Assembly (NCBI GenBank): GCA_965240325.2
Contig: OZ251222.1
Coordinates: 3,720,001 to 3,784,000 of the forward strand
DNA: 64,000 nt
Direction: 5' to 3'
Source: Rebecca billardiae RCC1528
Lineage: Eukaryota > Protista > Haptophyta
Part shown: one piece after another, positions 12,453 through 61,434 of the stretch
Position numbering within the stretch: position 1 is the stretch's first letter
Layout: the number at the start of each line of letters is the position of its first letter
Notes under the pieces: model-generated
Database searches by the model: none
The model's input: the letters and a program-made list of their open reading frames with translations, nothing else
Told to the model about the DNA's origin: nothing
Program-made: the position numbers and the translations under genes

Positions 12453-12480
12453 TGGTGGAGCCGCGGGGTGTCGAACTCCG
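12453..12480 (+). promoter_or_regulatory. Primer-binding site complementary to a tRNA 3' end (Ala-like)
   Basis: TGGTGGAGCCGCGGGGTGTCGAACTCCG; reverse complement reads ...GTTCGACACCCCGCGGCTCCACCA. Confidence 0.7.
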
Positions 12481-12936: not shown

Positions 12937-13029
12937 TGACAAATCGGATGAAAACCCGTTTGTCCGACTGAGCTATCGGCTTGCGCAAGCCGATAGCTCA
13001 GTCGGACAAACGGGTTTTCATCCGATTTG

Positions 13030-13032
<3 letters not shown>
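12937..13032. repeat. Perfect 96-bp palindrome (copy 2)
   Basis: Identical to 9532-9627. Confidence 0.97.
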
Positions 13033-20900: not shown

Positions 20901-21708
20901 CCGCCGCCCCCGAGCCCGCCACCGTCGCCGCCGCCGAGCCCGCCGCCGAGCCCGCCGCCGAGCCCGCCGCCTTCACCACCGCCATCACCGCCGCCCAGCC
21001 CACCGCCGAGCCCGCCACCGTCACCGCCACCGAGCCCGCCACCGTCACCGCCTCCGAGCCCGCCTCCGAGCCCGCCTCCGCCGTCGCCGCCGCCGTCACC
21101 CCCACCGAGTCCGCCGCCGAGCCCGCCTCCATCACCGCCGCCCTCGCCACCGCCATCGCCGCCGCCCTCGCCTCCACCCAGTCCGCCGCCCCCGAGCCCG
21201 CCACCCAGCCCGCCGCCCTCGCCGCCGCCCTCACCGCCGCCTTCGCCGCCGCCGAGCCCGCCGCCCTCGCCGCCCCCGAGCCCGCCGCCGTCGCCGCCGC
21301 CGTCCCCGCCACCCAGTCCGCCGCCCTCGCCGCCGCCGAGTCCACCCCCCCCCAGCCCGCCGCCGTCACCACCGCCGTCACCGCCGCCGTCGCCACCGCC
21401 CAGCCCGCCGCCCTCGCCGCCCCCCAGCCCGCCGCCCAGTCCGCCGCCATCCCCGCCACCCAGTCCGCCACCGTCGCCGCCACCGAGCCCACCACCGAGT
21501 CCGCCGCCGCCGTCGCCGCCGCCATCGCCACCGCCCTCTCCTCCGCCGAGCCCGCCTCCGTCGCCGCCGCCCCTCCCCCCACCGAGCCCACCGCCGAGCC
21601 CACCACCGTCGCCGCCGCAGTCGCCCCCCCCATCGCCGCCGCCGTCGCCACCACCAAGCCCGCCGCCTCCGAGCCCGCCGCCAAGCCCACCGCCCTCGCC
21701 GCCACCCA
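14923..21708 (+). CDS. Giant surface protein, 5' part: signal peptide + RCC1/BLIP-II-like repeats + start of SPPP stalk. Exons 14923-15071, 15186-15365, 15506-15886, 16084-16443, 16540-16719, 16874-
   Basis: MAAGVALLVLTAAPA start. Repeats of H(T/A)CA.....VKC(W/F)G.N..GQLG.G....RG...G.MGD.LP.V.LG. Five GTGCGC...CAG introns restore the frame. Confidence 0.88.
16983..21708 (+). repeat. Coding (Ser-Pro-Pro-Pro)n tract, part 1
   Basis: 12-bp units with synonymous variation and near-pure SPPP translation. Confidence 0.97.
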
Positions 21709-21791
21709 GTGTGTGGGAGTATACGGTGCCGCCGCCCCAGCTCTCTCCTCCGAGCCTACGACTCGTCATCCCCGATTCTCAGTCGAGCCAC
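21709..21791 (+). repeat. PLV left TIR (83 bp), followed by TCGAGCCACA subterminal repeats
   Basis: GTGTGTGGGAGTATACGGTGCC...CAGTCGAGCCAC is the exact reverse complement of 37870-37952. Confidence 0.97.
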
Positions 21792-21932
21792 ATCGAGCCA
21801 CATCGAGCCACATCGAGCCACGACGACCCACGAGCCACCATCCCACCACCGCCCGCCACCAACCGCCGCCGCCACGCCGCCGCCGCGTTTATTTCGGCGC
21901 AATATAAAATCTTACGCACGTGTATAATACTG

Positions 21933-22583
21933 ATGCCTTGGCGTGTGACTTGCGATGCACGCACCGGAGCGCCCGGCTTCGCCGAGAGCGAGGAATACGA
22001 ATCACGCTGGTATGTGGACCTGACGGACGCCATTCGTCACTTGCTCAATTTCAGCCCCTCGGAGCGGTTTCATTGCGTCCGCCACGCCACGGTACACTTC
22101 GAGTACTCGGGCGGTCGGGCATGCGAATTTCGGGATGGCCTGATTTTCTACGGCAATAGCCTCAGGGACTTAGGCGTGAGCGAGCGCACCTTTGATGACG
22201 CGTTCGAACAGGCGCTCGGCATCAAGCCGGTCACGCTGGAGCGGGTGAAGAACGTGTATGTCCCCATCGACACGAATGTTTCCTCCGGCCGCCATCGCCT
22301 CACGCAAGAGACCATCAAGCAAAAATCAAGGCGCTTACTTCCTCCGGAGGAAGAGTTGGAGGCGCACAGAGAGGAGAACATCGAGTGCTCCGAATGCCGC
22401 CGCGAGGTGCCATTCGAGCTCTTCGCCTTCCGCCGCCGCCGAGGCGGCAGCGTGACACGCACGATGAACTGCTACGAGTGCCACCTCGAGCAGGTGCGCA
22501 TCCGCCGGGCGCGCTTCGTGAGCAAGGGCGCATCCTCGGTGGAGCGCGACGCTCAAATAAAATCGGCGATTCGCGCCACCTAG
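21933..22583 (+). CDS. PLV hypothetical protein (216 aa) with C-terminal CxxC..CxxC zinc finger
   Basis: ATG at 21933 after an AAAATC motif; CSEC...CYEC. Same frame as the upstream host SPPP ORF. Confidence 0.7.
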   Translation: MPWRVTCDARTGAPGFAESEEYESRWYVDLTDAIRHLLNFSPSERFHCVRHATVHFEYSGGRACEFRDGLIFYGNSLRDLGVSERTFDDAFEQALGIKPVTLERVKNVYVPIDTNVSSGRHRLTQETIKQKSRRLLPPEEELEAHREENIECSECRREVPFELFAFRRRRGGSVTRTMNCYECHLEQVRIRRARFVSKGASSVERDAQIKSAIRAT

Positions 22584-22661
22584 AGAAATCGGGGGGCGCG
22601 TTATTCTAGCGCCAAATAAAAATGTCAACCACCATCATAACACAAAATCCACGTTTGTAGT

Positions 22662-25600
22662 ATGATGAACGTTGATGCCCTCATCCGAAATGCCCGCGCG
22701 CGCCTCAACGAGCGCACTCCTCGCATCGAAATTCCAATCACGAGTCGCCTGGGCGCTACCGCAGCGGCTCGTCGCGCTACTAGTCGTACTAGTGGAAACA
22801 CGAACCCCATCGCCAGAGCGTTCCAGTCTCCGCCGGGCAGCCCACCCGCCGGCTCGACGCCAGCCACCGGCCTTCGCCCCATCAGCCGCTCGCTCAGCCA
22901 ATACACGCGGGAGCAGCTCGTGCGCATCCGCCAATTCCAAGACGCATTCGAGGGCTTCGGCATGAGCGCGCCGCAAGTCCTCGCCGGCATGCTTTATCAA
23001 GATCCGTGGAGCGAACAGCGGCGCAAGATCCCCTCCACTAGCAGACAGCTCGACGCCCTCGCCGAGCGCGTCGCCAGCAAGATCTCCGGCCCCGCGCCCC
23101 GCCGCCGCCGCCGCGCGCCCGCCCGCGCGCCCGACCGCGAGCGCGCCGCGAGCCTCCTCCAGCGCTTCAATCGCTCCCACCGCTGGACTGACACCCAGCG
23201 CACGCAACTGGAAGTCGACCGGAACCTCGCCATGCTCTCCACAAGCATGCAGGATCGGTATTTTGAGTTCATCGACCGCAAGCGCTTCATCATGCCGCTC
23301 AAATGGATTCTACGCGAGAATCTTGGGTTGCTCCTGGAGCAGCAGCTGAATTACACGCCGAGCCAGCATCACCTCGGGGCGATTCTCCAGACGATTAATG
23401 CGACTATTGACGCTCGCTTGCAGGAGATACCGTACAGCCGGCTTTCGATGCACATTCGACTCGAATCGATATTCGCGCACGCCAAGGTGACGATTAGCAA
23501 ATCCAACAAGAACGGAAAGTCCGTCGAGACGTCCGATTTCACCTGGGAGGCGGACCCCTTCGCGGTGACCATGCACGAGGTCGCTCAGCTCAAGACCCGC
23601 GAGGAGATTATGCTCCACGCGCGCGCCTTCAAAAACGAGAATGACAAGTATAATCCGACCGCCCTCAACAAGGGCTTCTACGAATTCGGTGTGGTCACCG
23701 CGGGCGCGAAGGAGCTCGACAATTCGACGACGCGCCTGGTCATCGACAAAGGCAATCCCGAGGATGTGCAGCAGGCCAAGACCAAAATCGCGGAGATGCT
23801 TGCGCTCGTCACCTCCACGAGCAATCCGCAGTACAGTGCGCGGCGATTTGTGGGCCTCCTCAGTTTTGATGTGGATACCTACCCGATCAATGCCGTCCGC
23901 CAGCAGGGCTCGTCCTACGTCAAGCTCCCGCAGAAGTTCGGTGGTGGGAGCAAGGGGCTGATCAACCCGGAGAACAAGACCGACAACAAGTGTTTTCTGT
24001 GGGCCTCGCTCATGCACTTTGCCAGCGCAGATGGAGCCAAGAAGCTGGAGCGCACCAGCACGCTCAAGCGCTACGAGTCGATGATCGTCTGGCCGGAGGA
24101 GGTCAAGTTCCCGTTCGACTGCACCGACATCCCGAGCCTCGAGGAGGCCAACCCCACCCTCACCTGGAACGTCTTCTCACTCGAGCAGATCAAGCGCACC
24201 GCAGAGGATCATCATGAGCACCCCGAAGATACCGACGAGTCCAAGTACCCCATCGTGCCGATTCACACGACCACGCCGGAGAAATACCGCGAGCGCACGC
24301 TCATCAACATCCTCGCGTACGAGAGCCACTACGTCTTCATCAAGGACCTCGACAAGCTCCTCAGCGAGCGTGCGCACAACTGCGCGCACTGCCCCATCTG
24401 CACGCGCCGCTTCAGGACCAAGGCAAACCGCGATCAGCACACAGCGCAGTGCAACGCCAATTGGCGTCACCTCTTCCAGCCGTGGACGCTCGACGAGATT
24501 AAGAGCCAGGCGAGGACACCTCAGGAGCTCAAACGCACCGAGACGGACATCACCTACTCGCAAGATACTTCCGTCGTGTGGAAGCCGGTGGTAGCGGTGG
24601 CTGACTTCGAGGCGGTCAACACCACGCAGGTCAACGGGCAGACGCACCAGAAGGCGCAATCGGTAAGCCTCAAGTTTGATTTTCAGGACGGCATGGAGGT
24701 TCCTAACATCGATTGCAGCTTTATGGGTCCGGATGCGGGCGTGCGGTTTTTGCATGCGCTGCTCGATGCTACCCCAAAGATCCGCGATGCATGCTCGCGC
24801 TATAAGGGCAACTTTTCAAAGGTCACCGCGGCCGACCGCGAGCACTTTGAGGCGAGCGAGACGTGCCACTTTTGCGGTGAGGCTGCCTTCTCCTCAAACG
24901 CGGAGATTGCTCGCGCCGAGGCGGAGTATGAGCTCAAAGCGAAACTCGCGGTGGATGCGGACGAAAAGGATTCGCTGAAGGGCGCGCTCGAGGAGGTTCG
25001 GGCCCAGCGCAAGGTCCTCGACCACTGTCACTGCACGGGCCTCTACCGCGGCGCGGCGCACTCGCGGTGCAACCTCAAGCACGGCACGCCGAGCCTCATC
25101 AGCAGCATTCCGGTCTACTTCCACAACATGTCCTATGATAGCCAGCTCATCATGCAGGCGCTCTCCGACGTGAGCGTTCAGGCGCGCATCAAGGAGCACA
25201 AAGTCCGAATGAACGCCATGGTGATCAACTCCGAGCGTTTCAAGACGCTCGAGATTGGGCCCTTCCGCATCCTCGACTCGATGACTTTTCTGGGCGGAAG
25301 CTTGGCGGAATCTCTGAAGAATCTGCCTTCAGAGGCCAAGCACTCGCTCCGCCAGGCGGCCAACGAGCACGCAGAGCGCTTCGGCAAGGACCCAAGTGCA
25401 GTGTTCGAGGCCTTCAAGCACAAGCAGGTCTTCCCGTACGAGTTCGACTGGCATCAACACCTCGACGAATTCATCAGCGCAGACCCTCAGCTCTTCAGCT
25501 CCAAGCTCTGTGAAGGCTACGGCAAGACCGACGAGGAGCTGGAGGAGCGCCTGGAGGCCGAGCAAGAGGAGCTTGAGAAGAGCCTGCCCGAGCGCATGAG

Positions 25601-27287
25601 CCGCCTGCAGGAGGCGACCGGCATCGTCACGTGGCGCGACCTCCACGATCTGTACCTCAGCATTGATGTCTGCGGGCTCCAAGATTGCATGCGCGCATTC
25701 CGCAAGACCTCGATGAACACGTACGGCCTCGACCCGGCCTATTGCATCTCCAACTCGCAGTTCGCGTGGAAGGCCATGCTCAAGCTTACGGGCGTGAGGC
25801 TCGAGAGCATCCCGACGAGCGGACTGTACGAGCACGCCGAGTCCGGGCTCCGCGGAGGCATGTCGATGGCGCGAAACCGCATCGCACACGCCAATCACCC
25901 AGATCTCCCCGAATTTGATCCCACCAAAGAATTTTCGGCCATTCACGATTTTGATGCCAACGCGCTTTATGCCTCGGTGATGTCGTGGAAGCTACCGACG
26001 GGCGGGTATAAGGACGTCGATCCGGAGCGCTTCGATGCCAACGATCCGCGCTACGGTGGGCTCCCGACGCGACCGAATCAGCCGTGTGAAGAATGGCAGG
26101 GCGACGTGGGGGCGCTCGTGACAGTGGACATCGACTACCCAGACCGGCTGCACGACCTTCACAGCGACTACCCGCTGCTCCCTGAGGTGATGGAAGTACC
26201 CGACGAGATGCTCTCCCCTGCGCAGCAGGGCAAGCGCGCCGTCAAGACCACCAAGCTGATTGCGCACCTTGGCTCCCGCAAAAATTACACGCTCAACGTC
26301 ACGATGCTCAAGTTTGCGCTGGCGCAGGGGCTCGTGCTCACCAAGGTGCACCGAGTCGTCGAGTTCGAGCAAAGTCCGTGGCTGCGCCCGTGGGTGGACC
26401 TCAACACGCGGCTGCGCAAGCAGGGCAAGAACGCCTTCGAGGAGGGGTATTTCAAGCTCATGGTGAACGCATGCTTCGGCAAGACCATGGAGCGAATCTA
26501 CCACCACACGCAGGCTCGATTCATTGATAACCGTGCTGCATTCACTCGGGCCATGACGAGTCACCGGGCGCTCACGTACAAGCCTATCGCACCCGAGTTT
26601 GCGCTCGTGACGATGAGCAAGCGCGAGTACGTGCGTGACAAGCCCATCTTCGTGGGTGCCTCGATCCTCGACTTTTCGAAATTGTGGATGTATACGTTTT
26701 TGTATAATGTGGTCTACCCCACCTTCGGTCCGAAGAATGCCCGCCTGCTCGGGACGGATACCGACTCGCTGATTATGAATTTCCGAGCGCCCTCGCACGA
26801 GGCCTATTTGGAGAAAATGCTCAGCATCCGCGATGAATGGCTGGACACGAGCAAATTTCCGGAGGGGCACCCGCTCTTCACGGACGACAACCGCAAGACG
26901 CCGGGGTTTTTCAAGGACGAGCTCGGCGATAATCTGGCGGTGGCAGTGGCCTTTGTGCGGGCGAAGACGTACTCAATCAAGACGCGCAAGAGCCTCGAGG
27001 GCGAGCTTGAGGACGTCCACCGAGCCAAGGGGGCTCCCTCCCGCTGCGTGCAAAATAGCCTCACGCACGACGACTACGAGACGACGATTTTAGATAATTC
27101 GAGCGTCAGCGCACAGTATCACGATTTGCAATACAAAAATCACAACATAGTTTTCAGTCGCCGCGTGAAGAAGGTGCTCGACTGGGTCGACGATAAGGGC
27201 TATCATCTCTCGGCCGAGCGCACCATCGCCCTCAATCACTGGCGCATCAAGGCCGGTGGTCACGCTCTCGCGGCGGTAATGGACTAG
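22662..27287 (+). CDS. polB: Protein-primed family B DNA polymerase with N-terminal extension and endonuclease VII-like insertion
   Basis: Exo VADFE, YFHNMSYD, YLSID; Pol DFDANALYASVM, KLMVNACFGK, TDTDS, KTY; DNKCFLWA...HY; CHFC...DHCHCTGLYRGAAHSRCN. Confidence 0.96.
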   Translation: MMNVDALIRNARARLNERTPRIEIPITSRLGATAAARRATSRTSGNTNPIARAFQSPPGSPPAGSTPATGLRPISRSLSQYTREQLVRIRQFQDAFEGFGMSAPQVLAGMLYQDPWSEQRRKIPSTSRQLDALAERVASKISGPAPRRRRRAPARAPDRERAASLLQRFNRSHRWTDTQRTQLEVDRNLAMLSTSMQDRYFEFIDRKRFIMPLKWILRENLGLLLEQQLNYTPSQHHLGAILQTINATIDARLQEIPYSRLSMHIRLESIFAHAKVTISKSNKNGKSVETSDFTWEADPFAVTMHEVAQLKTREEIMLHARAFKNENDKYNPTALNKGFYEFGVVTAGAKELDNSTTRLVIDKGNPEDVQQAKTKIAEMLALVTSTSNPQYSARRFVGLLSFDVDTYPINAVRQQGSSYVKLPQKFGGGSKGLINPENKTDNKCFLWASLMHFASADGAKKLERTSTLKRYESMIVWPEEVKFPFDCTDIPSLEEANPTLTWNVFSLEQIKRTAEDHHEHPEDTDESKYPIVPIHTTTPEKYRERTLINILAYESHYVFIKDLDKLLSERAHNCAHCPICTRRFRTKANRDQHTAQCNANWRHLFQPWTLDEIKSQARTPQELKRTETDITYSQDTSVVWKPVVAVADFEAVNTTQVNGQTHQKAQSVSLKFDFQDGMEVPNIDCSFMGPDAGVRFLHALLDATPKIRDACSRYKGNFSKVTAADREHFEASETCHFCGEAAFSSNAEIARAEAEYELKAKLAVDADEKDSLKGALEEVRAQRKVLDHCHCTGLYRGAAHSRCNLKHGTPSLISSIPVYFHNMSYDSQLIMQALSDVSVQARIKEHKVRMNAMVINSERFKTLEIGPFRILDSMTFLGGSLAESLKNLPSEAKHSLRQAANEHAERFGKDPSAVFEAFKHKQVFPYEFDWHQHLDEFISADPQLFSSKLCEGYGKTDEELEERLEAEQEELEKSLPERMSRLQEATGIVTWRDLHDLYLSIDVCGLQDCMRAFRKTSMNTYGLDPAYCISNSQFAWKAMLKLTGVRLESIPTSGLYEHAESGLRGGMSMARNRIAHANHPDLPEFDPTKEFSAIHDFDANALYASVMSWKLPTGGYKDVDPERFDANDPRYGGLPTRPNQPCEEWQGDVGALVTVDIDYPDRLHDLHSDYPLLPEVMEVPDEMLSPAQQGKRAVKTTKLIAHLGSRKNYTLNVTMLKFALAQGLVLTKVHRVVEFEQSPWLRPWVDLNTRLRKQGKNAFEEGYFKLMVNACFGKTMERIYHHTQARFIDNRAAFTRAMTSHRALTYKPIAPEFALVTMSKREYVRDKPIFVGASILDFSKLWMYTFLYNVVYPTFGPKNARLLGTDTDSLIMNFRAPSHEAYLEKMLSIRDEWLDTSKFPEGHPLFTDDNRKTPGFFKDELGDNLAVAVAFVRAKTYSIKTRKSLEGELEDVHRAKGAPSRCVQNSLTHDDYETTILDNSSVSAQYHDLQYKNHNIVFSRRVKKVLDWVDDKGYHLSAERTIALNHWRIKAGGHALAAVMD

Positions 27288-27352
27288 CGCGTTTTTCTTG
27301 GCTCAAATAATTTTCTCACTCACTAGTAGAAAACTGGAAAACTAGTAAAACT

Positions 27353-27856
27353 ATGGCCCCCTGCGATTTTGACGTTTCCGCTCGCCGCGATTGCCGTGAG
27401 ATGCGCACCGAGTTCGAGGCCCTCAAGGAGCGCGTGGTGGCTCTCGAGCGTGTCTTCGCCGCGCCGCCCGAGCCGAGCGCACGCCCCGGGTCGCTCACGG
27501 CGGCATCATTAAATGCGATCAAGACTCACTTTAGTGGTATCGAAGTGGTCGGCGCCAAGTTCTTCAATGAGCATTGTGTTGTGGGCAAGCTCAGCGAGCC
27601 CTTCGTGAAGGGTCACACTGTACCGCAATCGTTCAAGATTACCCGCAAAATTACCGCCGTCAGTGAGGCGTACTGTGAGCCGGGTCGAGCGCCGATCTCT
27701 CAGTCGGCTACGCCCTCAACCCTTCGGGACGTACTGTGGCCGCGACGTGACTCGTGGTCACGTCAGCGAGGCGGAGCTTCGCTAAGCGCGCCCGCCGCGC
27801 CTCCCGCTGATTCGTGTGATCAACCGATGTTCGCTGATTCTGATGGTGAGGACTGA
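27353..27856 (+). CDS. PLV hypothetical protein (167 aa)
   Basis: Fills the gap after polB, AT-rich leader, short coiled coil EFEALKERVVALE. Confidence 0.6.
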   Translation: MAPCDFDVSARRDCREMRTEFEALKERVVALERVFAAPPEPSARPGSLTAASLNAIKTHFSGIEVVGAKFFNEHCVVGKLSEPFVKGHTVPQSFKITRKITAVSEAYCEPGRAPISQSATPSTLRDVLWPRRDSWSRQRGGASLSAPAAPPADSCDQPMFADSDGED

Positions 27857-27953
27857 GCGCAACGCCATCACACAATTTGGAAGGATCAAAAACACTCGAA
27901 GGCGCTCGCTCGGAGCGCTTCCGAGTCTTAGGGGGCATGATACTATTTCGATA

Positions 27954-28604
27954 CTATTTTGAGGGGTTCTTTTTTCGAGCGGACGGTCGCGCGGACGGCC
28001 GCAGTAGCCGGATACCCTCGCTGCGGATACCGGTGATAGGGCCCGTGAATCGCGCGGTGATGACCTGCGCACGGCGATTGGCGTTCGCCCGCGTGGTCAC
28101 GTTCGCGCCGGCGGGGATGACGTTGTGCTGCTCGACGTCTGGCTCGCGCCCGCCTTGGCGCACGATTTTCCCTGCCTTATCAAACACGTAATACTTGCCG
28201 TCGACGGGCCGGCGCGCGCGCGCCAGTAGCCGAGCGACGTTCTCCTCGAGCATTGCCGGGTTGCTGATTTGCCTCCACTCTTTATCGAGCGGCGGCTTGA
28301 CGAAGCCAAAGCCGGGGTTTGTGAGCGCGAGCAGGCGCTTCTCGGCGGGGAAGACCAAATTCGAAGACACAACCAAAAACCCGACTAGCCTGAACGAATT
28401 ACCGGGTTTGACGTAGGGCATCATATGACGATAGCCTTTGAAGGTTCGACTCACAATATTGGCGGTGAGGCCCATTTTGAACAAACGGTTAGAAGTGTCC
28501 CACCCGGGGGCGATCACATATAGGCCCGCCGCCGGCTTCCCTTCCGGGGTGCGCTTCAGCAAATTCGCGTTTTGCATGGCCTTTTCAAACTGCGATGATT
28601 TCAT
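27954..28604 (-). CDS. GIY-YIG superfamily (T5orf172/MUG113-like) nuclease with basic C-terminal tail
   Basis: GLYVI...LFKMGLTANIVSR...AEKRLL...EW fits the Y-[VI]...K-x-G-x-[TS]...R...E pattern. Confidence 0.7.
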   Translation of the reverse strand: MKSSQFEKAMQNANLLKRTPEGKPAAGLYVIAPGWDTSNRLFKMGLTANIVSRTFKGYRHMMPYVKPGNSFRLVGFLVVSSNLVFPAEKRLLALTNPGFGFVKPPLDKEWRQISNPAMLEENVARLLARARRPVDGKYYVFDKAGKIVRQGGREPDVEQHNVIPAGANVTTRANANRRAQVITARFTGPITGIRSEGIRLLRPSARPSARKKNPSK

Positions 28605-28749
28605 GGCTTAGCTAATTGTTACTCCGATTTTACTCGCATTAGCCGCCAAAGTGGAGTGTCGGTCGGCCACCCGGCAAAGTCATCATGTGCCGGCGACGAA
28701 TCGCTTACCGATTCATATCTCATGCCCTTATTAAAGAGGCCCTTGATTA

Positions 28750-30918
28750 ATGTCGTCGATTTTTGGCGACTCGCCAAGCATCTCTGCTGCTATCGATGGC
28801 TCCGTCCAGGCGCTCGGGAGCGGACCGGCAGTCTCTTGGACGGGCAACATCGAGACCTTCCCGCTGAATCCGTCTGGATTATACGCCACTTTTTCTCCAG
28901 GGCTGCCCACGAGCGGCGTACTGCGGGTGCGCATCTCGCATCCAACCCATTATTTTGACGTGACATCGCTCGCGCTCACCAGCGCAGATATGACCATCGC
29001 GTGGACAGCGGCAAGCTGGGAAAGTAACAGCGTGGTATATGACGAAGAATTCAAGCCGCATTTCCAGATTTGGTCCGACGAGACGTATCTGACCTCATTT
29101 GATTACACCGGCAGTTTGTACACGGAATCGATCAGTTTTGAAGGCACACTGATTCAGGCGGCGGCGCGCAACACCCCAGTCCTCCACATGCCTCTGGCGG
29201 GCGACTTGATTGATACCGTCCGCGGGCAGGCTATGGTGCCCTCTGGTACCACTTCGTTTACAGACAAATCCATCGTGATGAACTCGGCGAGCGGTGCGTT
29301 CACCATCACCAACCCTGGTCATGACTGGCGCGACTTTACGCTATGCGCGTTCATGCGCGGCCCCTCCGGCGCCGGCGTGATGGATCTGCGCGTGGGGCAG
29401 ACTGACACCAGTGTTATCGTCTCGCTATCACCCACCGCGAATGTCGAGATCACCACGCTCAAAGATAGCTCTTCACTGATAACAAACGTAGATGAAGATA
29501 CACGCCAAACGTGGTTCCACGTGGCAGTGCAGCAGAACGCCACCCACGTGGATGTCTACATCGATCAAGTGCTTGCGCACAGCCGCGATCTCGACCCAGC
29601 GCTCGACCCCGACCCCGATCGGGTCTCTTTGCGCTATCCCGTAGTATTTAATGCCGATCTGGCAAGCGAATTGGCCCATGTGACAATCTACCCATACGCA
29701 CTCGATACCACCGATCGACTGGCGCACGCCGAAAGCTGGTCTGGGTACGTCCCACCGCCGGCGCTCGTGCTGCACCTGCCTCTGAGCGCCGACCACACCG
29801 CGGTTGTGGGCACAACTCCAGCCGTATTGCCGCCGGGATCCGGATCCTTTGCAGGCGGGTATTTGACCATGGATACCGTTTATTCGTTCGAGACACCGTC
29901 CGACACGTTCTCCGCCACGAATGGTTTCACGATGTGCGCTTGGATGCGCTCTGCGGCAGGGTGGCAGCCGGGCGATTACGTTCGCTTCCGCGTGTTTGAG
30001 GGTAATTTCACGACCAATTCCAAGGCAGAGCTGGACCTCGAATCCGGTCATGTGTGGAGTCGTCACGAGCAAGTCACAGGACTCTCCGCAGGCCAATGGT
30101 ATCACTTGGCGTGGCGCTGGCGGCCGAACGATAATCTGCAAGAACTGCTCGTGGACGGCGTCGTCTCTGCCAGCAGCATCCAGCCCGGCCAATTCACGAC
30201 GTATCAATCGTGGCGCGTCCAAAACAATGCGGCAGACGCTGCGTTGATGCACTTGCAAGTGTGGGACGGCTACGTCGACGACATTGCGCAGGTCATGATT
30301 GACTACCCACTACCAGAGGCAATAAGTCCATTTGCCAGCTGGCCGATGACGGCGAATTTGACCGACGATGTGGGTAGCTATGCCTTTACGGTGTCGACTG
30401 GGACCGCAACGCACACGAATGGCTATGCGGACCTCAGTAGCGGTCTGGTGATGACTGCACCGGTACCGACTCAGACGATGACGGCTTTCGGGTTCTCTGG
30501 ATGGGTCTACGTGGATGACATCCAGGGCTCATTAAAATTCGAATGGCGTAATACAGGCTCGAAGGTCGTGCATTTCTACATCTATCGCAACGGCGTGGGT
30601 AATACCGCATTCGGCTTCGATATTACAGGGCAGTCTGGCAACTTGTATGATCGTGTGGATGTGCTGCCGCTGAATACCTGGTACCACATTGCCTGGTCTT
30701 ATACAGTCGGAGGCAACCTGGAGGCCTGGCTGAACAAGGTGTCCCTCGGCGCGGAGGCCATGAGCGCCACCGCAGTGGGCGATATCAACGAAATTTATGT
30801 CAGCACGCCTCCAAGCGGCGGTCCTTTCAAGTGCGCGGCCGTTCGCTTTTATACCGACGGTGCGCTCACCCAGGCCGAAGTAGATAGCGACTATGACCTC
30901 TTCACGCCACCGCCATAG
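28750..30918 (+). CDS. Protein with three LamG/concanavalin A-like domains; putative fibre or receptor-binding protein
   Basis: Three repeats of (H/W)(M/L)PL..D...FT.(C/S).W...W(Y/F)H(V/L/I)A...(Y/W).(D/N). Confidence 0.75.
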   Translation: MSSIFGDSPSISAAIDGSVQALGSGPAVSWTGNIETFPLNPSGLYATFSPGLPTSGVLRVRISHPTHYFDVTSLALTSADMTIAWTAASWESNSVVYDEEFKPHFQIWSDETYLTSFDYTGSLYTESISFEGTLIQAAARNTPVLHMPLAGDLIDTVRGQAMVPSGTTSFTDKSIVMNSASGAFTITNPGHDWRDFTLCAFMRGPSGAGVMDLRVGQTDTSVIVSLSPTANVEITTLKDSSSLITNVDEDTRQTWFHVAVQQNATHVDVYIDQVLAHSRDLDPALDPDPDRVSLRYPVVFNADLASELAHVTIYPYALDTTDRLAHAESWSGYVPPPALVLHLPLSADHTAVVGTTPAVLPPGSGSFAGGYLTMDTVYSFETPSDTFSATNGFTMCAWMRSAAGWQPGDYVRFRVFEGNFTTNSKAELDLESGHVWSRHEQVTGLSAGQWYHLAWRWRPNDNLQELLVDGVVSASSIQPGQFTTYQSWRVQNNAADAALMHLQVWDGYVDDIAQVMIDYPLPEAISPFASWPMTANLTDDVGSYAFTVSTGTATHTNGYADLSSGLVMTAPVPTQTMTAFGFSGWVYVDDIQGSLKFEWRNTGSKVVHFYIYRNGVGNTAFGFDITGQSGNLYDRVDVLPLNTWYHIAWSYTVGGNLEAWLNKVSLGAEAMSATAVGDINEIYVSTPPSGGPFKCAAVRFYTDGALTQAEVDSDYDLFTPPP

Positions 30919-30952
30919 ACAGCCAAAAATCCGTGGTACCGGTACCATAACA

Positions 30953-31621
30953 ATGCGAGCCGTACCTACGGTATCAACCGCCGAAGGCGAAGCGCGCGTC
31001 GCGACCGGCGCCAAAGCGGCGTGGGATGCCGGCCACACCCTGGAGAACGACCACCGTAATCTGTTGCGCGCATCGTACGACGATTTGCCTCGTGCGCAGC
31101 ACCGCTTGCACTCGCTCGGGTACGATATGGATGCCGATTTGAGCACGGACGAGGCCAAAGTCGCCGTCCACCGGGCGTCTGGCAGGCCACTGGTGCTGCA
31201 TCGCGGATCGACCACCTCCGCTGATTGGCTGGTGAGCGATGCGCTCATCGCCGCCGGCCGAGCTGATGCGCACGACCCCCGCCACGCGCGCGCGCGCAAG
31301 ATCACCGAAATTACCCGGCGCAAATATGGACAACCGGTGTCGGCCATCGGGCACTCGCTCGGCGGCAGGCTGGCGGCACAATCCGGTGCAAAAGGACGCA
31401 TTCTCGGCGTCGACCCAGCGGTCGGCATCGGGGATGCATTTAAGAGGCGTGGCGACAATCACACGGTGATCAGATCGCCTGATGATGTGGTCAGCGCGCT
31501 CGGCGTGACGCAGCGCGGTGGGCAGGTCAAACACAAGCGCGGCTATGCTAAAAAAGGCAGCGCCGCGGACTTTTTATTGGGAGGGCTACCGATCAACCCG
31601 ATCGAGGCCCACCGTTTTTAA
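30953..31621 (+). CDS. Lipase (class 3-like alpha/beta hydrolase)
   Basis: HRGS...DW, GHSLGG nucleophile elbow, D-VVS, C-terminal His; common in PLVs and virophages. Confidence 0.85.
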   Translation: MRAVPTVSTAEGEARVATGAKAAWDAGHTLENDHRNLLRASYDDLPRAQHRLHSLGYDMDADLSTDEAKVAVHRASGRPLVLHRGSTTSADWLVSDALIAAGRADAHDPRHARARKITEITRRKYGQPVSAIGHSLGGRLAAQSGAKGRILGVDPAVGIGDAFKRRGDNHTVIRSPDDVVSALGVTQRGGQVKHKRGYAKKGSAADFLLGGLPINPIEAHRF

Positions 31622-31906
31622 TCAGTACCCGACGGTGCGCGCAGCGCGGTCCGCAACGTCCACCGCCTCGGTGGCTCGCTCGATCGCGCGGCGCCCCGCC
31701 GCCGTGAACGGCGCAGCTACGTCGCCCAGGCCGGGAGTCTTATCAATTTCTGAAGTCACCTGTTTTAGGTCTTTTCCGATTTTGTGAACGCACGGTTTGG
31801 CGTCGTGGATGGCGCGTGCGAGCGGCCGGCCGATGCGCTGCGCATGACTCGCGAGGCGCCCTAGGCGGCGCTTTCCTTGATTGATGAGGCGCCCGAGGAA
31901 GCTCAT
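31622..31906 (-). CDS. Small basic protein with N-terminal amphipathic helix (putative virion core or membrane-penetration protein)
   Basis: MSFLGRLINQGKRRLGRLA; lies directly after MCP and has its own AAAAATCCG leader. Confidence 0.6.
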   Translation of the reverse strand: MSFLGRLINQGKRRLGRLASHAQRIGRPLARAIHDAKPCVHKIGKDLKQVTSEIDKTPGLGDVAAPFTAAGRRAIERATEAVDVADRAARTVGY

Positions 31907-31929
31907 ACTAGTATTCGTAGATCGGATTT

Positions 31930-33183
31930 TTACTCGGAGAACGACACGATGCCGTCAGACACCTCCAGCAGCATGTCCGCCTGGCAGAAGAAATCAACGA
32001 TAATAGAGACGCCAGCTTTCGTGTCACACACGAATTGCACGGCCTCATCGCGGAGCACGCGACCGTCACTCAGTATATCACTCAGACCGAACGCCGACAG
32101 TGAGAGCCCCATCACAAAGCCCTCCTCATCATATACTGCAGACGAGAGCGTGCTGGGCGCGTCAGCCATGTCGACGCTCTGAAGGGCCTTCATCAGCTCC
32201 ATACGCCCCTCGGCGGCACCGTTCGCAAGTGAGATGCGCTCCTGCGGTACGTTGTGCGCCCCGATCTTCAGGTAAAAATAGCTGGCGTCGGCACGCGTGC
32301 GCAAGTTGCCGTGCACCGCCGCCGACTCGACGCTCGAATCCGCGCGAATAATCGCGAAGATAGCGTTTGCCGAAGCCATCTTCCAGGGTAGCGTGAAATT
32401 GATTGAGCCGCTTTGGACTGTGGTCTGGGCATGATGCCAATTCGACGTGGGGATAATGATGCGCGGAATCGAGCGGACGAGCGCCTGCTCAACCGAGTCG
32501 GCGAGCTGCACGAGCGACATTTGATACTTGACATTATCGAGCTTGAAGCTGCCGGTTGACAGCCCATTACCAGTCACGCCCCATTTGGGCAGCGGTGCGA
32601 CCTTGACCTCGACGCGCAGGCCATCGCGGATCACGCCCAGTGGGATGGACTTCTGCGCGAGCGAGCCGAGGCAATATGGGAGCGGAAGGCAGACCGTCTT
32701 GCGCTCGCCGGCTTCGATTCGCGCACCATCGCGGCTGTAGTAGGCATCGACCGCATCCAAGATGACATTGCCACTAATAGGGAGATAATCCGACGAGCCC
32801 ATGATCGTGTTGGTTGTCATGCGGCTGCTAGTGGAGGCCTGCGTATCCATGAGCATCTGGCACAGCTCGCCGAACTGATCATTCGAGGCCACGTGGGTTG
32901 ATCCGAAATACGTGTCGATCGACTGAATGCACGAGTGCGCCGTACCAGTGAGCGTCAGGGAAGTGGTGCTGTTGTTGAAAACGTCAAACTGCAAGTACGA
33001 CTCTGACGTGTTCCAATGAGTGCCCGGCGAGCCCGTCGGGAGCTGGAAGATCATCTTCGTGCCTGGGCCGAATTCGTTGCTGGGGCCTGGGACGACAGAC
33101 GAGCGAATCGACTGAGCGGGCACTGCGAGATCCTTGGGCTTGGCATAGTTATAGCTGGCCGGGACAGTCGGCGTCGAATCCAT
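31930..33183 (-). CDS. Major capsid protein (double jelly-roll, PLV type)
   Basis: 417 aa, beta-rich. N-terminal P..FGPG..MIFQLP....SYLQFDV and C-terminal FVMGLSL...DMLLEV patterns are typical of PLV MCPs. Adjacent to mCP and ATPase. Confidence 0.85.
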   Translation of the reverse strand: MDSTPTVPASYNYAKPKDLAVPAQSIRSSVVPGPSNEFGPGTKMIFQLPTGSPGTHWNTSESYLQFDVFNNSTTSLTLTGTAHSCIQSIDTYFGSTHVASNDQFGELCQMLMDTQASTSSRMTTNTIMGSSDYLPISGNVILDAVDAYYSRDGARIEAGERKTVCLPLPYCLGSLAQKSIPLGVIRDGLRVEVKVAPLPKWGVTGNGLSTGSFKLDNVKYQMSLVQLADSVEQALVRSIPRIIIPTSNWHHAQTTVQSGSINFTLPWKMASANAIFAIIRADSSVESAAVHGNLRTRADASYFYLKIGAHNVPQERISLANGAAEGRMELMKALQSVDMADAPSTLSSAVYDEEGFVMGLSLSAFGLSDILSDGRVLRDEAVQFVCDTKAGVSIIVDFFCQADMLLEVSDGIVSFSE

Positions 33184-33226
33184 TTATTAAGGTGTGAGAG
33201 GATGCGACATTTTATTTTGCCACGTC

Positions 33227-33988
33227 TTAGACGACGTCGAGTCGGAGTCGGAGCGTCCACTGAGCTCCGTTGAGATTAAGTGGCTCCATCGTATTTGAAT
33301 CGAGTAGCTGGAATTCCAATGTGCTAATACTGCGGCGGCCGACTTCGCGTACGGTGTCCGTCTGATTGAGCCATGTTTGGACTTGCCCGAAGCCTACGTT
33401 GAAGAGCACCTCGCCTAGAACATTCGTCGTGGAGCCGCCGCCAGTGGAATCGCGCGTGCGCAGCTCGAGGCTCTCGCACGCCACCAGCGCACCGCGGCGT
33501 AGCATGTCGGCGACGCCCGGCGGCGAGGCGGAGCCGCCAGCAGGCACCGTTAGGTTCGATCCGAGCAACCCGATCACGCGAGCGATGGGCGATGAGGCCC
33601 ACACGGTGTCATCCGTACCCAAGCTGTTCGCGAAGACGAATTTGCCGAGCTGCTCGTCAAAAGTAACCGTCAAATGACTCGCACCGCCCGCCGTCAGCTT
33701 TGAAGTAAGCTCGGTGGCCAGCTGCGAAGCGGTGTAATTTTTGATATCGGGATAGACGTGCACATCACCCCAGTTACCGCCCACATACAAGTCGTTATTC
33801 GTGGCGTCGATTGCATACGATGTATTTGGCAAGCAAACGCTGATTAAATTGCAGAATATGTTCTCGCTGCTGTCTGCCACTATGGGCTCCGACAGATCAA
33901 ATACGACGTGGTCGGTGCGGTTAGAGCCGCTCGGGAAACGGTCAGCCTGCGCAGTGCTCAAATACAGGTCACTCAGCGCAAACGTCAT
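33227..33988 (-). CDS. Minor capsid (penton) protein
   Basis: LYLST..., LPNTSYAID..NN.L, NY...QLA..L, C-terminal LEFQLLD....LNLNG..W.L.L motif. Confidence 0.82.
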   Translation of the reverse strand: MTFALSDLYLSTAQADRFPSGSNRTDHVVFDLSEPIVADSSENIFCNLISVCLPNTSYAIDATNNDLYVGGNWGDVHVYPDIKNYTASQLATELTSKLTAGGASHLTVTFDEQLGKFVFANSLGTDDTVWASSPIARVIGLLGSNLTVPAGGSASPPGVADMLRRGALVACESLELRTRDSTGGGSTTNVLGEVLFNVGFGQVQTWLNQTDTVREVGRRSISTLEFQLLDSNTMEPLNLNGAQWTLRLRLDVV

Positions 33989-34134
33989 TGTGGTCGTCAC
34001 GCGGATTTTTAAGCGTCGCTTTTAGAGCTGGCGGTGGGTGGTTTTGAGCGAGCTCTTCGAAGACTTCGTCGGGGAGGCACGCGGGCAGCTTCGAGCGCCA
34101 GTAGATTTCGGCGTAGTCTCTGTAACAAATATCC

Positions 34135-34683
34135 ATGGTGCTCTTAACTATGACCAAGAAAAAAGTAGTGGTCATTGAGGCCGGTAATCACCTCGATGCT
34201 CGGCCTGGCGCCGGCGATAGCATCGGTGATAGCAGGGGTTCTCCTGGGGAACTGTCTGTGGGAAGCGATGCTGCCTCCGCGAGTGAGCCCGCCTCACTCG
34301 TGGTGGAACCCCCTCCAATTGTGCGAGCAGAGCCTATATATGCAACTCCTGTCACCGTCATAAAGAAGCGAGTGCTGAGCGACAAGGCCCGCAAGGCGCT
34401 CGATCGAGGGCGACTCCAGCGTATGCGCGATGAATACGGCCGCCAAATCGCTAACTATACAAAGCTAGCCAAAGAGCTCGATGAGCGCCTCGCAACCCTC
34501 GATCCTGCAGGGCCAACCCCAGAGCCACGAGCGCTCAAGCGCACCGATATGGTCATCGTAGACGAGCCCCCGGCTCGACCGACGGAGAGCCAGCCGCCCG
34601 CGCCGACGCCCGCGCCGACGCCCGCGCCGGTTCGCCCGCCGTTGCGCTATGCGCCTGCATCGCGTGCCTTCAAATTCGCCTAA
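34135..34683 (+). CDS. PLV hypothetical protein upstream of the ATPase
   Basis: KKRVLSDKARKALDRGR basic helix, coiled coil, Pro-rich tail; the start may be 34150. Confidence 0.65.
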   Translation: MVLLTMTKKKVVVIEAGNHLDARPGAGDSIGDSRGSPGELSVGSDAASASEPASLVVEPPPIVRAEPIYATPVTVIKKRVLSDKARKALDRGRLQRMRDEYGRQIANYTKLAKELDERLATLDPAGPTPEPRALKRTDMVIVDEPPARPTESQPPAPTPAPTPAPVRPPLRYAPASRAFKFA

Positions 34684-34703
34684 AAATACCAAGGCCCCTA
34701 CTA

Positions 34704-35414
34704 ATGGTGACCATCGAGGAGACGCCCCCTGAAAAGGTGATCGAACTGGTGATGCCTGCCATGCTCGTCGACGGGAAGCTATCGGACAGCATACCAGAGC
34801 CACTGCCAAATCAAGCCAGTTTTTGGGGATTCTTTGGGCCGCCCCGCTCGGGAAAGAGCTCGGCGGTAATCGCGCTGCTGACGGGCCATTATCGCCAAGT
34901 GTTTCACAACGTGATATATATCGTGCCGGCGTCGAGCTTTGCGAGCGTGCGGGACAATCCGCTTGCGCAAGTGAAACATGTGTACCACGAATTCGACGCC
35001 GAAACGCTCGATGATGTGATGGATATCGTCAAAGCGTCATCGAAGAAGGGTCATCACACCCTCGTTTTAGTCGACGATTTCATGACCGCTCTCAAAGACG
35101 CGCCGCTGCGCAGGCAATTCGAAAAACTGGTAGCCAACCGCCGCCACCTGCGCACGAGTTTGTGGGTCATCTCACAAAACTATATTGCGCTGCCGTTGAG
35201 CACGCGGAAGCTTCTGAGTCACACGCTGTTTTTTCGACCTAATAATTTGCGTGAAACGGAGTCGTTCCGCAGCGAGCTCTTCCCTATGAGCCGGCACGAT
35301 TTCCAGGTGATTTTTAATCACGTGTTTGCGAGCGGCAACAAGCACGATTTTATGTTTGTCGACGTGGATGCGGGTGAGATCCACAAGAAATGGACTAGAC
35401 TTCGAATCGTCTAG
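34704..35414 (+). CDS. A32-like (FtsK/HerA) genome-packaging ATPase
   Basis: Walker A GPPRSGKS, Walker B LVLVDD, RRH....ISQ motif. Confidence 0.92.
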   Translation: MVTIEETPPEKVIELVMPAMLVDGKLSDSIPEPLPNQASFWGFFGPPRSGKSSAVIALLTGHYRQVFHNVIYIVPASSFASVRDNPLAQVKHVYHEFDAETLDDVMDIVKASSKKGHHTLVLVDDFMTALKDAPLRRQFEKLVANRRHLRTSLWVISQNYIALPLSTRKLLSHTLFFRPNNLRETESFRSELFPMSRHDFQVIFNHVFASGNKHDFMFVDVDAGEIHKKWTRLRIV

Positions 35415-35454
35415 ACCGACGACGAATAAATCTAGGCATCACTCACAGATCACG

Positions 35455-36255
35455 ATGGGCGAGGCAGTACACCACGAGCGTCTCGAAATCAATGAAAAAA
35501 CGACTCATTTTTCGCTAAACGGCGAGCCCTACGATGGACCCAAGCACCGTAAGTGGCCAAAATACGAGTGGTGGACTGGCGTGATCCCAACGAACGCTAG
35601 CGAGAAGCTCGTCTACCACAATCGCGCGCTGCTAATGGAGGGCCAGGATGATGACCCGTCAGCGCCTTTCAAGATCATGTCGACGCTCGAGTCACACGGC
35701 GAGCATAGCGGTGAAATCGTCAATTTTGAGACGATGGCGCGCGACCCGCAGACGGACGAGCGCATCCGTCTCTCTAAAATGAATTTCCCCCCACGCAATA
35801 TGTTTGCAGGCAAACGCGGCGGTTTTTCGCACGTGGTCGAGCAGCGCCTGCCCGAAAGCAAACCAGTGAGGCCACAGACGCCTCCAGAGGAGGCGCCAGT
35901 GCCTGCAACCCCCATGAAGCCCGCGCCAAGTCGATCACCTGCACCCATGTCAATGACCAGGGTCATGCCCGAGCCGGTAACGGGTCAGCCTATGGATGCT
36001 ACACCCCTTCTAGTTGACGGTCTGCCTATGTTTGTTGGTGAACTTCGAACCAGTGTCAGACGTACAGCTCAAAATCGCATTGATGTATTCTTTAATCGTT
36101 TCTTGGTGAGATCTTATGAGGACGGCTGGAGCAATGATCATTTGGAAAATAAGCTCGCGTCGCATCTGAAGATAAAATTACCGCTTGTGCGCATACTCGT
36201 CAATGAAAAGGTTGCCCGGGGTGGTCCTCGACGGCAGCCAGCGCTACTACCTTAG
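35455..36255 (+). CDS. PLV hypothetical protein (266 aa)
   Basis: ATG at 35455 after the ATPase stop; two globular parts joined by a Pro-rich linker; no recognisable motif. Confidence 0.6.
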   Translation: MGEAVHHERLEINEKTTHFSLNGEPYDGPKHRKWPKYEWWTGVIPTNASEKLVYHNRALLMEGQDDDPSAPFKIMSTLESHGEHSGEIVNFETMARDPQTDERIRLSKMNFPPRNMFAGKRGGFSHVVEQRLPESKPVRPQTPPEEAPVPATPMKPAPSRSPAPMSMTRVMPEPVTGQPMDATPLLVDGLPMFVGELRTSVRRTAQNRIDVFFNRFLVRSYEDGWSNDHLENKLASHLKIKLPLVRILVNEKVARGGPRRQPALLP

Positions 36256-36575
36256 CCGACAAAGTGGTACACGATTACCTTTCCCTTAATGGCCATGCAG
36301 CGCACCGCATCGGCTATCTCGAACACAGGCGTATCGTGCATTTTGATGTAGGCCTCAGCATCGAGCAGCTCGATGTCGATGAGATCAAAAGTGCGAGTGC
36401 GCTGGAGGCGCTTGCTCAGGTAGCCGTCGCGAAGCGTGATGGTCGTCTTGATCTTCTTGTTGCGCAGATCGCTCATGTACTTACCAGATGGCTTGCGCAC
36501 CTCCGTGCGCCGGCCCTCGTCGAGCATTTCGAAGAAATCACGGTCGAGCGGGAGCGAGACCGTTGGAGTCACCAT
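36252..36575 (-). CDS. ASCH/PUA-like domain protein
   Basis: LPL...FFEML..GRRTEVR...ITLRDGY resembles the ASCH GxKxxExR...GY signature. Confidence 0.55.
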   Translation of the reverse strand: MVTPTVSLPLDRDFFEMLDEGRRTEVRKPSGKYMSDLRNKKIKTTITLRDGYLSKRLQRTRTFDLIDIELLDAEAYIKMHDTPVFEIADAVRCMAIKGKVIVYHFVG

Positions 36576-36604
36576 CGTGCGGGCACTAGTCCGGATTTTG
36601 ATTT

Positions 36605-37552
36605 TTAAGAAGCCTTGAAGCGCTTCGGGAGATCCGGGTAGCGAGCGCCTGGAGCGCCCGTGTCGAGCTCCTCGGAAGTGTAGGTCTCGTTCACGTCAAC
36701 GACGATCATCCGCTTGCGCTGGTTGATCACCTCGACGTCCGGCGTAAAGTTCGCCGCGACGATCACCCACGGCTTGCGGATGCGCTTGAACGGGATCTTC
36801 GACGTGCCCGGCACCTTCCCGCCCGCCAGGTTCTCGAGCAGGCCCCAGAACCAGCTCGGCACGCCCACCAAAGTCGTGATCTTCGTCAGGTCGAAGAAAA
36901 CGTGATCGATGGGGCCGTTGCGGAGGCGTGCGACGATGATCGCTCGCGTGCTGCCTGGGATGTCGTAGTACTCGATGAGGGGGAGCAGGCCCGTGGACAT
37001 AGGCTGCTCAGATATGAAGTCGCACATCATCGACTTGCCGATCTGACCAGTCTTGTCGCTCGCGAACCAAACCGTGTTCGCCGTCGCCTCCTGCGGGAAG
37101 GGCTTGGCAAAAGCCTCCATCCACTCTTTCTGCATCAAGTTGGGCTCGAAGAGAAGCGGTGGTGGGAGTGAGCTCATCGAGGGCGAGGCGAACGTAGACG
37201 TCTGCAGCGCGTCGATTCGCCCTAGCAGCTTCGCCTCGCGCTGCGCAAAGTACTCCGCGCACGGCGTGTCGAATCCGTACTTGATCTTGGCAAAGGCAGT
37301 GCCAAACTTGAGGGAGGGCATGCGCACCTCGCCGTTGATCTCCTGCACGCGGCACGAGCGGCGGTAGTCGAGTGTGAGGACGAGCGTGATGCCCTCGTGC
37401 GTGCTCGCCGACGTCAGCCGGCCGTGCTTCCCGCCCTCGAGCGTGTCGAGCGTCCTCGTCTTCACGTGCTCGTGCAGGACGTCGTGCTCATCGCAGTCCG
37501 CAAAAACGAACTCCCAGTGCGATCGCGCTAGCGGAGCGTGCTTGGATGGCAT
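36605..37552 (-). CDS. CRESS-virus Rep-like protein: SF3 helicase with a degenerate HUH-like N-terminus
   Basis: VWFASDKTGQIGKS (Walker A), VFFD (Walker B), LENLAGG, PWVIVAANFTPD (motif C), as in nanovirus/alphasatellite-type Rep helicases. Confidence 0.75.
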   Translation of the reverse strand: MPSKHAPLARSHWEFVFADCDEHDVLHEHVKTRTLDTLEGGKHGRLTSASTHEGITLVLTLDYRRSCRVQEINGEVRMPSLKFGTAFAKIKYGFDTPCAEYFAQREAKLLGRIDALQTSTFASPSMSSLPPPLLFEPNLMQKEWMEAFAKPFPQEATANTVWFASDKTGQIGKSMMCDFISEQPMSTGLLPLIEYYDIPGSTRAIIVARLRNGPIDHVFFDLTKITTLVGVPSWFWGLLENLAGGKVPGTSKIPFKRIRKPWVIVAANFTPDVEVINQRKRMIVVDVNETYTSEELDTGAPGARYPDLPKRFKAS

Positions 37553-37869
37553 ATTGCGCTTCGGTCGCTTTTCACCTAAGCCGCTTGTCTTTAACTACGA
37601 GCCGCACGGGCTTCGTGGGGCTTCGTGGTGGTGCTGTAGTAGTGGGATCGCTTCTCTTTAACTACATATGAGTCCGGATGCTCAAAAATGAGTTCAGTAC
37701 GGTGGGGCTTCGGGGGCTTCGTGGGGCTTCGTGGGACGAGTCGGACGAGTCGTAGACTCGTGGTGGGTCGGAGACTCGTCGTAGACTCGTGGGATGGCGA
37801 TTGGGGGAGGCTCTGCGGAGGCTCGATGCGGCTCGATGTGGCTCGACGTGGCGGCGGGTGGCGGGCGTC

Positions 37870-37952
37870 GTGGCTCGACTGAGAATCGGGGATGACGAGT
37901 CGTAGGCTCGGAGGAGAGAGCTGGGGCGGCGGCACCGTATACTCCCACACAC
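37870..37952 (-). repeat. PLV right TIR (83 bp)
   Basis: Exact reverse complement of 21709-21791; ends ...ATACTCCCACACAC. Confidence 0.97.

Positions 37953-38707: not shown

Positions 38708-38740
<33 letters not shown>

Positions 38741-57599: not shown

Positions 57600-57630
<31 letters not shown>

Positions 57631-61400: not shown

Positions 61401-61434
<34 letters not shown>

Follow-up and report, generated by a model that had tools for sequence, protein, structure and literature searches.

The window analysed here, a 64,000-nt stretch of the genome of the haptophyte Rebecca billardiae RCC1528 (assembly GCA_965240325.2, contig OZ251222.1, positions 3,720,001 to 3,784,000 of the forward strand), holds a 16,244-bp element at 21709-37952 that interrupts a host gene encoding a very long Ser-Pro-Pro-Pro (SPPP) array. 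A first-pass annotation had placed the element at this same position and described it as a complete Polinton-like virus (PLV), integrated with neither an integrase gene nor a target-site duplication (TSD). Judged on its sequence, the element is genuine: an endogenous PLV that looks intact and in which no integrase can be recognised. The paired inverted ends were as predicted: the arms forming its terminal inverted repeats (TIRs; 21709-21791 and 37870-37952) are 83 nt each and 100% complementary, and together with its length they agree with the size and termini of PLVs (14-40 kb, with TIRs). Inward of these arms the two ends are still alike but rearranged. The 18-nt element end occurred twice in the window, compared with no occurrence in 100 shuffles, and GC content was 0.59 within the element against 0.81-0.85 in the host flanks. 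The symmetry of the arms suggests that both TIRs are full length, and identical TIRs and open reading frames (ORFs) make this a young-looking copy. Short tandem 10-mers at the left end, with related, rearranged repeats inside the right end (37590-37870), are candidate protein-binding iterons. The features of the locus are as follows.

16944..21708, + strand: host exon on the left side, encoding SPPP array; exons with RCC1 repeats lie before it (RCC1 Pfam matches)
21685..21708, + strand: 24-bp direct repeat next to the element, left copy; may be a long TSD or a chance tandem unit of the host array
21709..21791, + strand: left TIR, 83 bp, beginning with a GT dinucleotide run
21782..21830, + strand: short tandem 10-mers across the inner edge of the left TIR
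21933..22583, + strand: ORF1, 216 aa; C-terminal zinc finger resembling endonuclease VII (EndoVII)/HNH (phrog_1035, E=6.8e-5, residues 129-194)
22662..27287, + strand: protein-primed DNA polymerase, pPolB (PF03175, E=2.9e-6, above cut-off; PF02945, E=0.006)
27353..27856, + strand: ORF3, 167 aa; no family match
27954..28604, - strand: ORF4, 216 aa; presumed GIY-YIG-like, from a motif only
28750..30918, + strand: 722-aa protein with three LamG/concanavalin-like domains (PF13385, E=3.9e-17)
30893..31621, + strand: alpha/beta hydrolase (lipase-like), 242 aa (PF12697, E=0.021; NF047388, E=3.9e-5)
31622..31906, - strand: 94-aa basic ORF; weak phrog_11531 match (E=0.073, 37 residues)
31930..33183, - strand: putative major capsid protein (MCP), 417 aa, from size and gene context; one 51%-identical metagenomic relative
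33227..33988, - strand: 253-aa putative minor capsid protein (DUF5901, under the cut-off at E=0.018)
33969..34175, - strand: 68-aa ORF; no matches in Pfam, PHROGs or NCBIfam
34135..34683, + strand: 182-aa ORF; no matches in Pfam, PHROGs or NCBIfam
34704..35414, + strand: A32-type packaging ATPase, 236 aa (PF04665, E=2.1e-4, 21.3 bits with a cut-off of 22.8; phrog_2666, E=3.7e-11)
35368..36255, + strand: ORF13, 295 aa; largest remaining candidate for a hidden integrase
36252..36575, - strand: 107-aa ORF, presumably ASCH/PUA-like (phrog_625, E=0.023)
36605..37552, - strand: 315-aa protein; SF3 helicase of CRESS-virus type, with no HUH nickase motifs detected in its N-terminal domain
37870..37952, - strand: right TIR, 83 bp, perfect complement of the left arm
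37953..37976, + strand: right copy of the 24-bp direct repeat, 23/24 identical to the left copy
37953..64000, + strand: host exon on the right side; the SPPP array continues to about 57000 and is followed by TIG and REJ domains (PF02010, E=3.6e-24; PF01833, E=6e-4)

We counted 15 ORFs in the element rather than the 13 first reported; all are open, as claimed, and they cover 93% of its length with a largest gap of 400 nt. The polymerase is a protein-primed PolB of the kind that defines strict Polintons, with exonuclease and polymerase motifs intact in an alignment with six relatives. It has 302 relatives at E<=1e-20, the closest named one (Pavlovales sp. CCMP2436, 43% identity) lying on a 143-kb contig. 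An A32/FtsK-type packaging ATPase, a hallmark of PLVs, is also present, and the 722-aa LamG protein is likely to be a fibre or attachment protein. The 417-aa protein, which resembles PLV capsids, we take to be the MCP, the 253-aa protein to be a minor capsid protein and ORF4 to be a GIY-YIG protein from its motif; Pfam, PHROGs, NCBIfam and the PDB gave no confirmation of these three labels. Profiles for the Sputnik/mavirus-type MCP (PF21915 and PF22031) matched a control locus, L058, but neither the 417-aa protein nor its relative, and the capsid candidate showed no similarity to the L058 MCP. No Ulp1/adenain maturation protease, a trait of strict Polintons, was matched among the 15 ORFs, although a divergent form may sit among those without matches. 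Neither ORF3 (Pfam, PHROGs, NCBIfam) nor ORF13 (these three, the PDB and the ESM Atlas) matched anything. Copies of the capsid candidate, the ATPase and ORF13 identical to those of the element occur on short-read contigs of 2.5-2.8 kb, and eight of the ten element proteins looked up had no entry in the searched protein collection. The 6-bp palindrome ACTAGT recurs just 5' of several viral ORFs (27288-27352, 31907-31929 and 36576-36604) and is a possible promoter element.

Focusing on integration genes, we scanned the 15 ORFs against Pfam, PHROGs and NCBIfam at E<=0.1. None of the 15 matched an rve or tyrosine-recombinase family, apart from a single PHROG 'integrase' match in the 94-aa ORF (E=0.073), which at 37 residues is too short for a tyrosine-recombinase catalytic domain. 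The six-frame translation gave 56 segments of at least 100 aa, five of which were main ORFs already scanned; none of the other 51 matched any Pfam family at E<=0.01. Regular-expression scans for motifs over 136 six-frame segments returned scattered chance matches only. Both the rve integrase of strict Polintons and the tyrosine recombinase gene of Yrec PLVs were thus undetected in the three-library scan and the 51 further segments, bearing out the first-pass reading of the ORFs, and the element encodes no recognisable integrase.

The interrupted host array (16944-56990) comprises about 7,900 codons and over much of its length specifies almost only Ser and Pro residues; other codons are commoner near the right flank of the insertion and at the far end of the array. 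Removing 21709-37952 in silico joined A and GC into a Ser codon and reopened the host frame, with 0 stops in the 10,271 codons to the window end, as the first-pass annotation had indicated. The insertion thereby breaks a giant predicted surface protein, with possible relevance to host-virus contact. In the occupied state, the left SPPP exon stays open across the left TIR and continues, in frame, into viral ORF1 (16944-22583, + strand), a 1,879-aa fusion ORF that may be due to chance. A stretch of the TIR (21728-21759) weakly resembles SPPP-coding host DNA some 120-145 nt to the left of the junction; among 200 shuffled TIRs, 3 did equally well, and GC-rich repeats may explain the likeness. Two tRNA-Ser genes (CGA and AGA anticodons; 6289-6373 and 6808-6891) lie about 10 kb upstream of this serine-rich gene.

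At the junctions, the claim that no base was gained or lost and that no TSD exists was not confirmed. The 24 nt flanking the element on each side agree at 23 of 24 positions, and treating this repeat as a TSD likewise restores the host frame; blunt insertion, as first proposed, is therefore unproven because a near-perfect 24-bp direct repeat flanks the element. Among duplication lengths of 0 to 30, only 0 and 24 give a junction Ser in the SPPP register with at most one mismatch, so that the coding-repeat frame limits the junction to two forms, blunt or a 24-bp duplication. Exact duplications of 2-11 bp were absent beyond 2 nt. A 5-bp duplication with one mismatch was rejected because the frame of the host gene would then be lost, and putative duplications of 6, 7 and 8 bp carried 4, 4 and 3 mismatches. 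The 5-8-bp TSD of strict Polintons is thus missing, and an rve-type duplication of 5-6 bp is excluded by frame and mismatches together, in line with the earlier claim; this argues against an rve integrase, whether in cis or in trans. Alternative TG...CA ends, one base shorter on each side, gave neither a duplication nor an in-frame join.

Because the 24-bp repeat lies within a repetitive array, its significance depends on the background. Flanking repeats of 20-60 nt with at most one mismatch were found at 258 of 23,585 array positions and at 153 of 4,939 within 2.5 kb (1-3%). Non-periodic 24-mers with such a flanking repeat were scarcer (54 of 23,646 array positions, falling into six clusters), and the left 24-mer has no other near-copy (<=1 mismatch) in the 24-kb array. 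A blunt model accounts for the register at no cost, but its flanking repeat needs a 1-3% coincidence; a duplication model requires that the length happens to keep the register and that one mutation has arisen in the repeat although there is none in the TIRs. The repeat favours neither model decisively. By judgement rather than computation, we regard blunt insertion as fairly probable, a 24-bp TSD as a lesser possibility, and the loss of whole repeat units at the site, invisible in the frame, as improbable.

The EndoVII-like motif of pPolB had been put forward as one possible integration enzyme, a role that comparison with relatives makes look unlikely. The motif occurs in 117 of 120 pPolB relatives among the matches listed, including the named PolB of a Corynactis adintovirus. 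Adintoviruses are defined by encoding rve (PMC11071296), and HNH-type inserts in Polinton pPolBs have already been published (10.1101/2023.08.22.554363). The motif is, as far as these sequences indicate, an ordinary part of this pPolB group and no mark of integrase-less elements.

As to how the element entered the array, we lean, tentatively, towards host repair, in which the whole linear PLV genome was joined into a break in the SPPP gene by host end joining. Among the routes offered by the first-pass annotation, this one and an enzyme supplied in trans still lead. Host repair is preferred because none of the 15 ORFs or 51 further segments matched an integrase and no gap exceeds 400 nt in which one could hide; because the HUH test of the Rep-like helicase was negative (below) and the EndoVII-like motif is ordinary in relatives; and because there are precedents in an integrase-less PolB PLV (PMC11296320) and in a stand-alone S3H gene beside pPolB (PMC11161782). 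The free form would be a linear, protein-capped DNA, copied by the element's own pPolB from its GT-repeat ends, with the CRESS-type SF3 helicase, whose gene lies near the right end, presumably helping to unwind DNA rather than nicking it. A break would arise in the 24-kb GC-rich repeat array, either spontaneously or through one of the putative nucleases of the element, and the broken array would capture the viral genome, with blunt joints or after staggered fill-in of 24 nt. To be reactivated, the element would then need to excise via the paired TIRs.

A number of points weigh against host repair. The same terminal base at both junctions and a scarless host side are seen more typically with a dedicated recombinase than when protein-capped DNA undergoes end joining, and it is these clean ends that most weaken the repair model. 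The 24-bp flanking repeat, with its background of 1-3%, could be a duplication made by an enzyme; cryptophyte PLVs with tyrosine recombinases sometimes show repeats of 7-23 bp (PMC12220804), and across polisuviruses pPolB correlates strongly with DDE transposases (10.64898/2026.10.13.758929). Five ORFs (167, 94, 68, 182 and 295 aa) and the N-terminal domain of the helicase carry no assignment, and the case rests on a single copy.

We consider it rather unlikely, though next in order, that a non-rve recombinase (of the tyrosine type or another that leaves no short duplication) was supplied in trans by a related element sharing these ends, or that such a gene was once present and was lost cleanly. 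The symmetric, clean ends fit this explanation, as does the general lack of TSDs among tyrosine-recombinase PLVs, a few of which have the 7-23-bp repeats (PMC12220804). Integration in trans has been proposed for Ca_PLV1 (PMC11296320), and the related pPolB on the 143-kb contig of the Pavlovales genome suggests that the lineage has integrated elsewhere. Weighed against this, no helper element lies within the window, an rve helper is excluded by the absent 5-6-bp duplication, and tyrosine recombinases accompany PolA or AEP rather than pPolB replicases (10.64898/2026.10.13.758929).

An integrase in cis, hidden in ORF13, ORF3, ORF1 or the helicase N-terminus and possibly nicking 24 nt apart to produce a long duplication, is in our view unlikely. 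It would be consistent with the clean, symmetric ends and with a 23/24 direct repeat whose left copy is unique in the array at <=1 mismatch; the 295-aa ORF13 has no relative in the ESM Atlas, and the helicase gene adjoins the TIR, a common place for integration genes (PMC11296320). Neither profiles nor the atlas supported a recombinase for any of these candidates, however, there is one base of difference between the 24-mer copies but none between the 83-bp TIRs, and the host array forms such tandem units unaided, as its six clusters of non-periodic 24-mers attest. A broader and more doubtful form of the idea is that a haptophyte-associated pPolB virus lineage integrates by a dedicated route outside the known integrase classes, in which a new orphan-ORF recombinase would join the ends to 24-nt staggered nicks or to a blunt cut, accompanied by a CRESS helicase whose nickase domain was replaced. 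If true, this would be a third PLV integration system beside rve and tyrosine recombinases.

The Rep-like protein had itself been suggested as the integration enzyme. As an active HUH nickase it would transfer a single strand, as in Replitrons, Helitrons and IS91, without duplications; we consider this highly unlikely. The 315-aa protein lies next to Cressdnaviricota Reps in the ESM Atlas (0.97), HUH transposons mostly leave no duplication (PMC10288648), and circovirus Rep-like nickases occur in Gulliviroviridae virophages (10.64898/2026.10.13.758929). Its helicase region (residues 154-291) matched a hidden Markov model at E=3e-8, and its Walker A, Walker B and motif C align with those of CRESS Reps, which makes it a CRESS-type SF3 helicase. 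The N-terminal domain was compared with a profile built from Reps of 54 viral loci, for which 22 ORFs of 230-420 aa were aligned and 19 kept after three partial ones were dropped. The N-terminal 125 residues scored no better than shuffled sequences, 86 of 100 shuffles scoring as high in local and 41 of 100 in global alignment (with a two-sequence profile, 40 of 60); in leave-one-out controls 19 of 19 HUH domains were detected. In one MAFFT alignment, E39, H52 and Y92 did fall on the catalytic columns of the Reps, the Gln column being occupied by Gly, but the register shifted once relatives were added. Only two relatives of the protein were found among 1.84 billion representatives, and H52, Y92 and Y101 are all missing from the one that is full length. 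HUH/HUQ motif II and YxxK motif III are thus both undetected.

Structure prediction for this protein was of low confidence: the model of the N-terminal domain (mean pLDDT 47) suggests a beta meander unlike the HUH arrangement, and a single-sequence model of the helicase reached a pLDDT of 32.5. Fold searches with the low-confidence N-terminal model gave no match at E<=0.001 and a best Z of 3.7 among 48,161 chains; matches to an intasome (Z 2.9) and to Hermes transposase (Z 2.8) were at noise level and were set aside. Searches with the helicase by tblastn against plasmids and phages returned no match, a word-based homolog search retained 0 of 1,783 candidates, and the element ends showed no CRESS-type nonanucleotide hairpin. 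The protein is most likely a helicase whose nickase was lost or replaced, probably accessory to pPolB. Least probable of all is an assembly artefact that stitched a free viral genome into the repetitive host region: the flanks are indeed highly repetitive, but both joints lie, to the base, at the TIR ends and the host frame runs on across them, an outcome to be expected only rarely from a mis-join, and the three element proteins found identical on short-read contigs support the element sequence, though not the junctions.

The first-pass annotation had inferred an undescribed blunt integration route. Integrated PLVs without a detectable integrase have precedents in print (PMC11296320, PMC12220804), although the mechanism itself is unsolved and the entry of such PLVs into host genomes is an acknowledged open point (PMC11296320). 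Ca_PLV1 of Cetonia aurata is integrated without a detectable integration gene, and its authors propose cryptic or trans functions (PMC11296320). Ca_PLV1 and AHEV_PLV1 (Barth et al. 2024, PMC11296320) resemble our element in having PolB, terminal repeats and an A32 ATPase with no detectable integration gene; they differ in their insect host and in carrying a cysteine protease, and no CRESS-type helicase has been reported for them. The paper nowhere uses the phrase 'target site'. Our element is a clean case for asking how integrase-less PLVs enter genomes.

Polintons/Mavericks and adintoviruses (Polintoviricetes) share with the element TIRs, an ATPase and a full-length pPolB with an EndoVII/HNH-like insert; many of their polymerases are about 30% identical to its own, and its size is near their 13-25-kb range (10.1101/2023.08.22.554363). 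Unlike them, it has no detected rve integrase, 5-8-bp TSD or maturation protease, and its 83-bp TIR is shorter than the 100-1500 bp quoted for Polintons. Endogenous algal PLVs (cryptophyte, PMC12220804; haptophyte PgVV-group, 10.1101/2022.07.28.501842) likewise have TIRs, a GC content below that of the host, and lipase and nuclease-like accessory genes. Many TIR-flanked cryptophyte PLVs lack a TSD, and in cryptophyte cluster C4 an rve gene was present in 94 of 183 and a tyrosine recombinase in six (PMC12220804). Unlike the element, these endogenous algal PLVs mostly use rve or a tyrosine recombinase, and the PgVV-group combines a TVpol helicase with Yrec where the element has full pPolB and a CRESS-type helicase. 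Among protist elements most, but not all, encode integrases (PMC10120064); the supplement of that paper gives at least three MCP entries for one Diacronema assembly.

Mavirus also pairs pPolB with a separate S3H gene (PMC11161782), and Gulliviroviridae carry circovirus Rep-like proteins (10.64898/2026.10.13.758929). The element differs from virophages in lacking a Sputnik-type MCP match and in having a helicase without detectable nickase motifs, and from mavirus in particular, which has an rve integrase and a truncated exonuclease. With CRESS-DNA virus Reps and Replitrons it shares an SF3 helicase in which Walker A, Walker B and motif C align; unlike theirs, its HUH motifs II and III are undetectable and the gene resides in a linear double-stranded DNA element with TIRs. 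The combination of full pPolB with a helicase of single-stranded DNA virus type, its nickase seemingly lost or swapped, is a small addition to the mosaic evolution of such viruses. The literature covered, which mostly excludes subscription papers, yielded no description of the element or of an integrase-less pPolB PLV with a nickase-less CRESS-type helicase; preprint supplements may list it.

Locus searches with the MCP, pPolB and the helicase alignment found no informative relative, one of them returning three loci. The best of these, L058 (28% pPolB identity), is a 15.9-kb viral contig of a virophage whose capsid genes, major as well as minor, are of Sputnik type; it is too distant to inform. 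Matches to the 18-nt element end elsewhere (one viral-contig locus and two in metagenome contigs) had no further similarity and were attributed to chance.

A second insertion, of 3.5 kb, occupies 9532-13032 of the window. It resembles a hairpin-ended element in an AT-rich site with no obvious duplication. Its long inverted arms of about 550-600 bp are 97-100% complementary, each ending in a perfect 96-bp palindrome, and they enclose an ORF for a Copia-type reverse transcriptase (10436-11857; RVT_2, E=9e-52).

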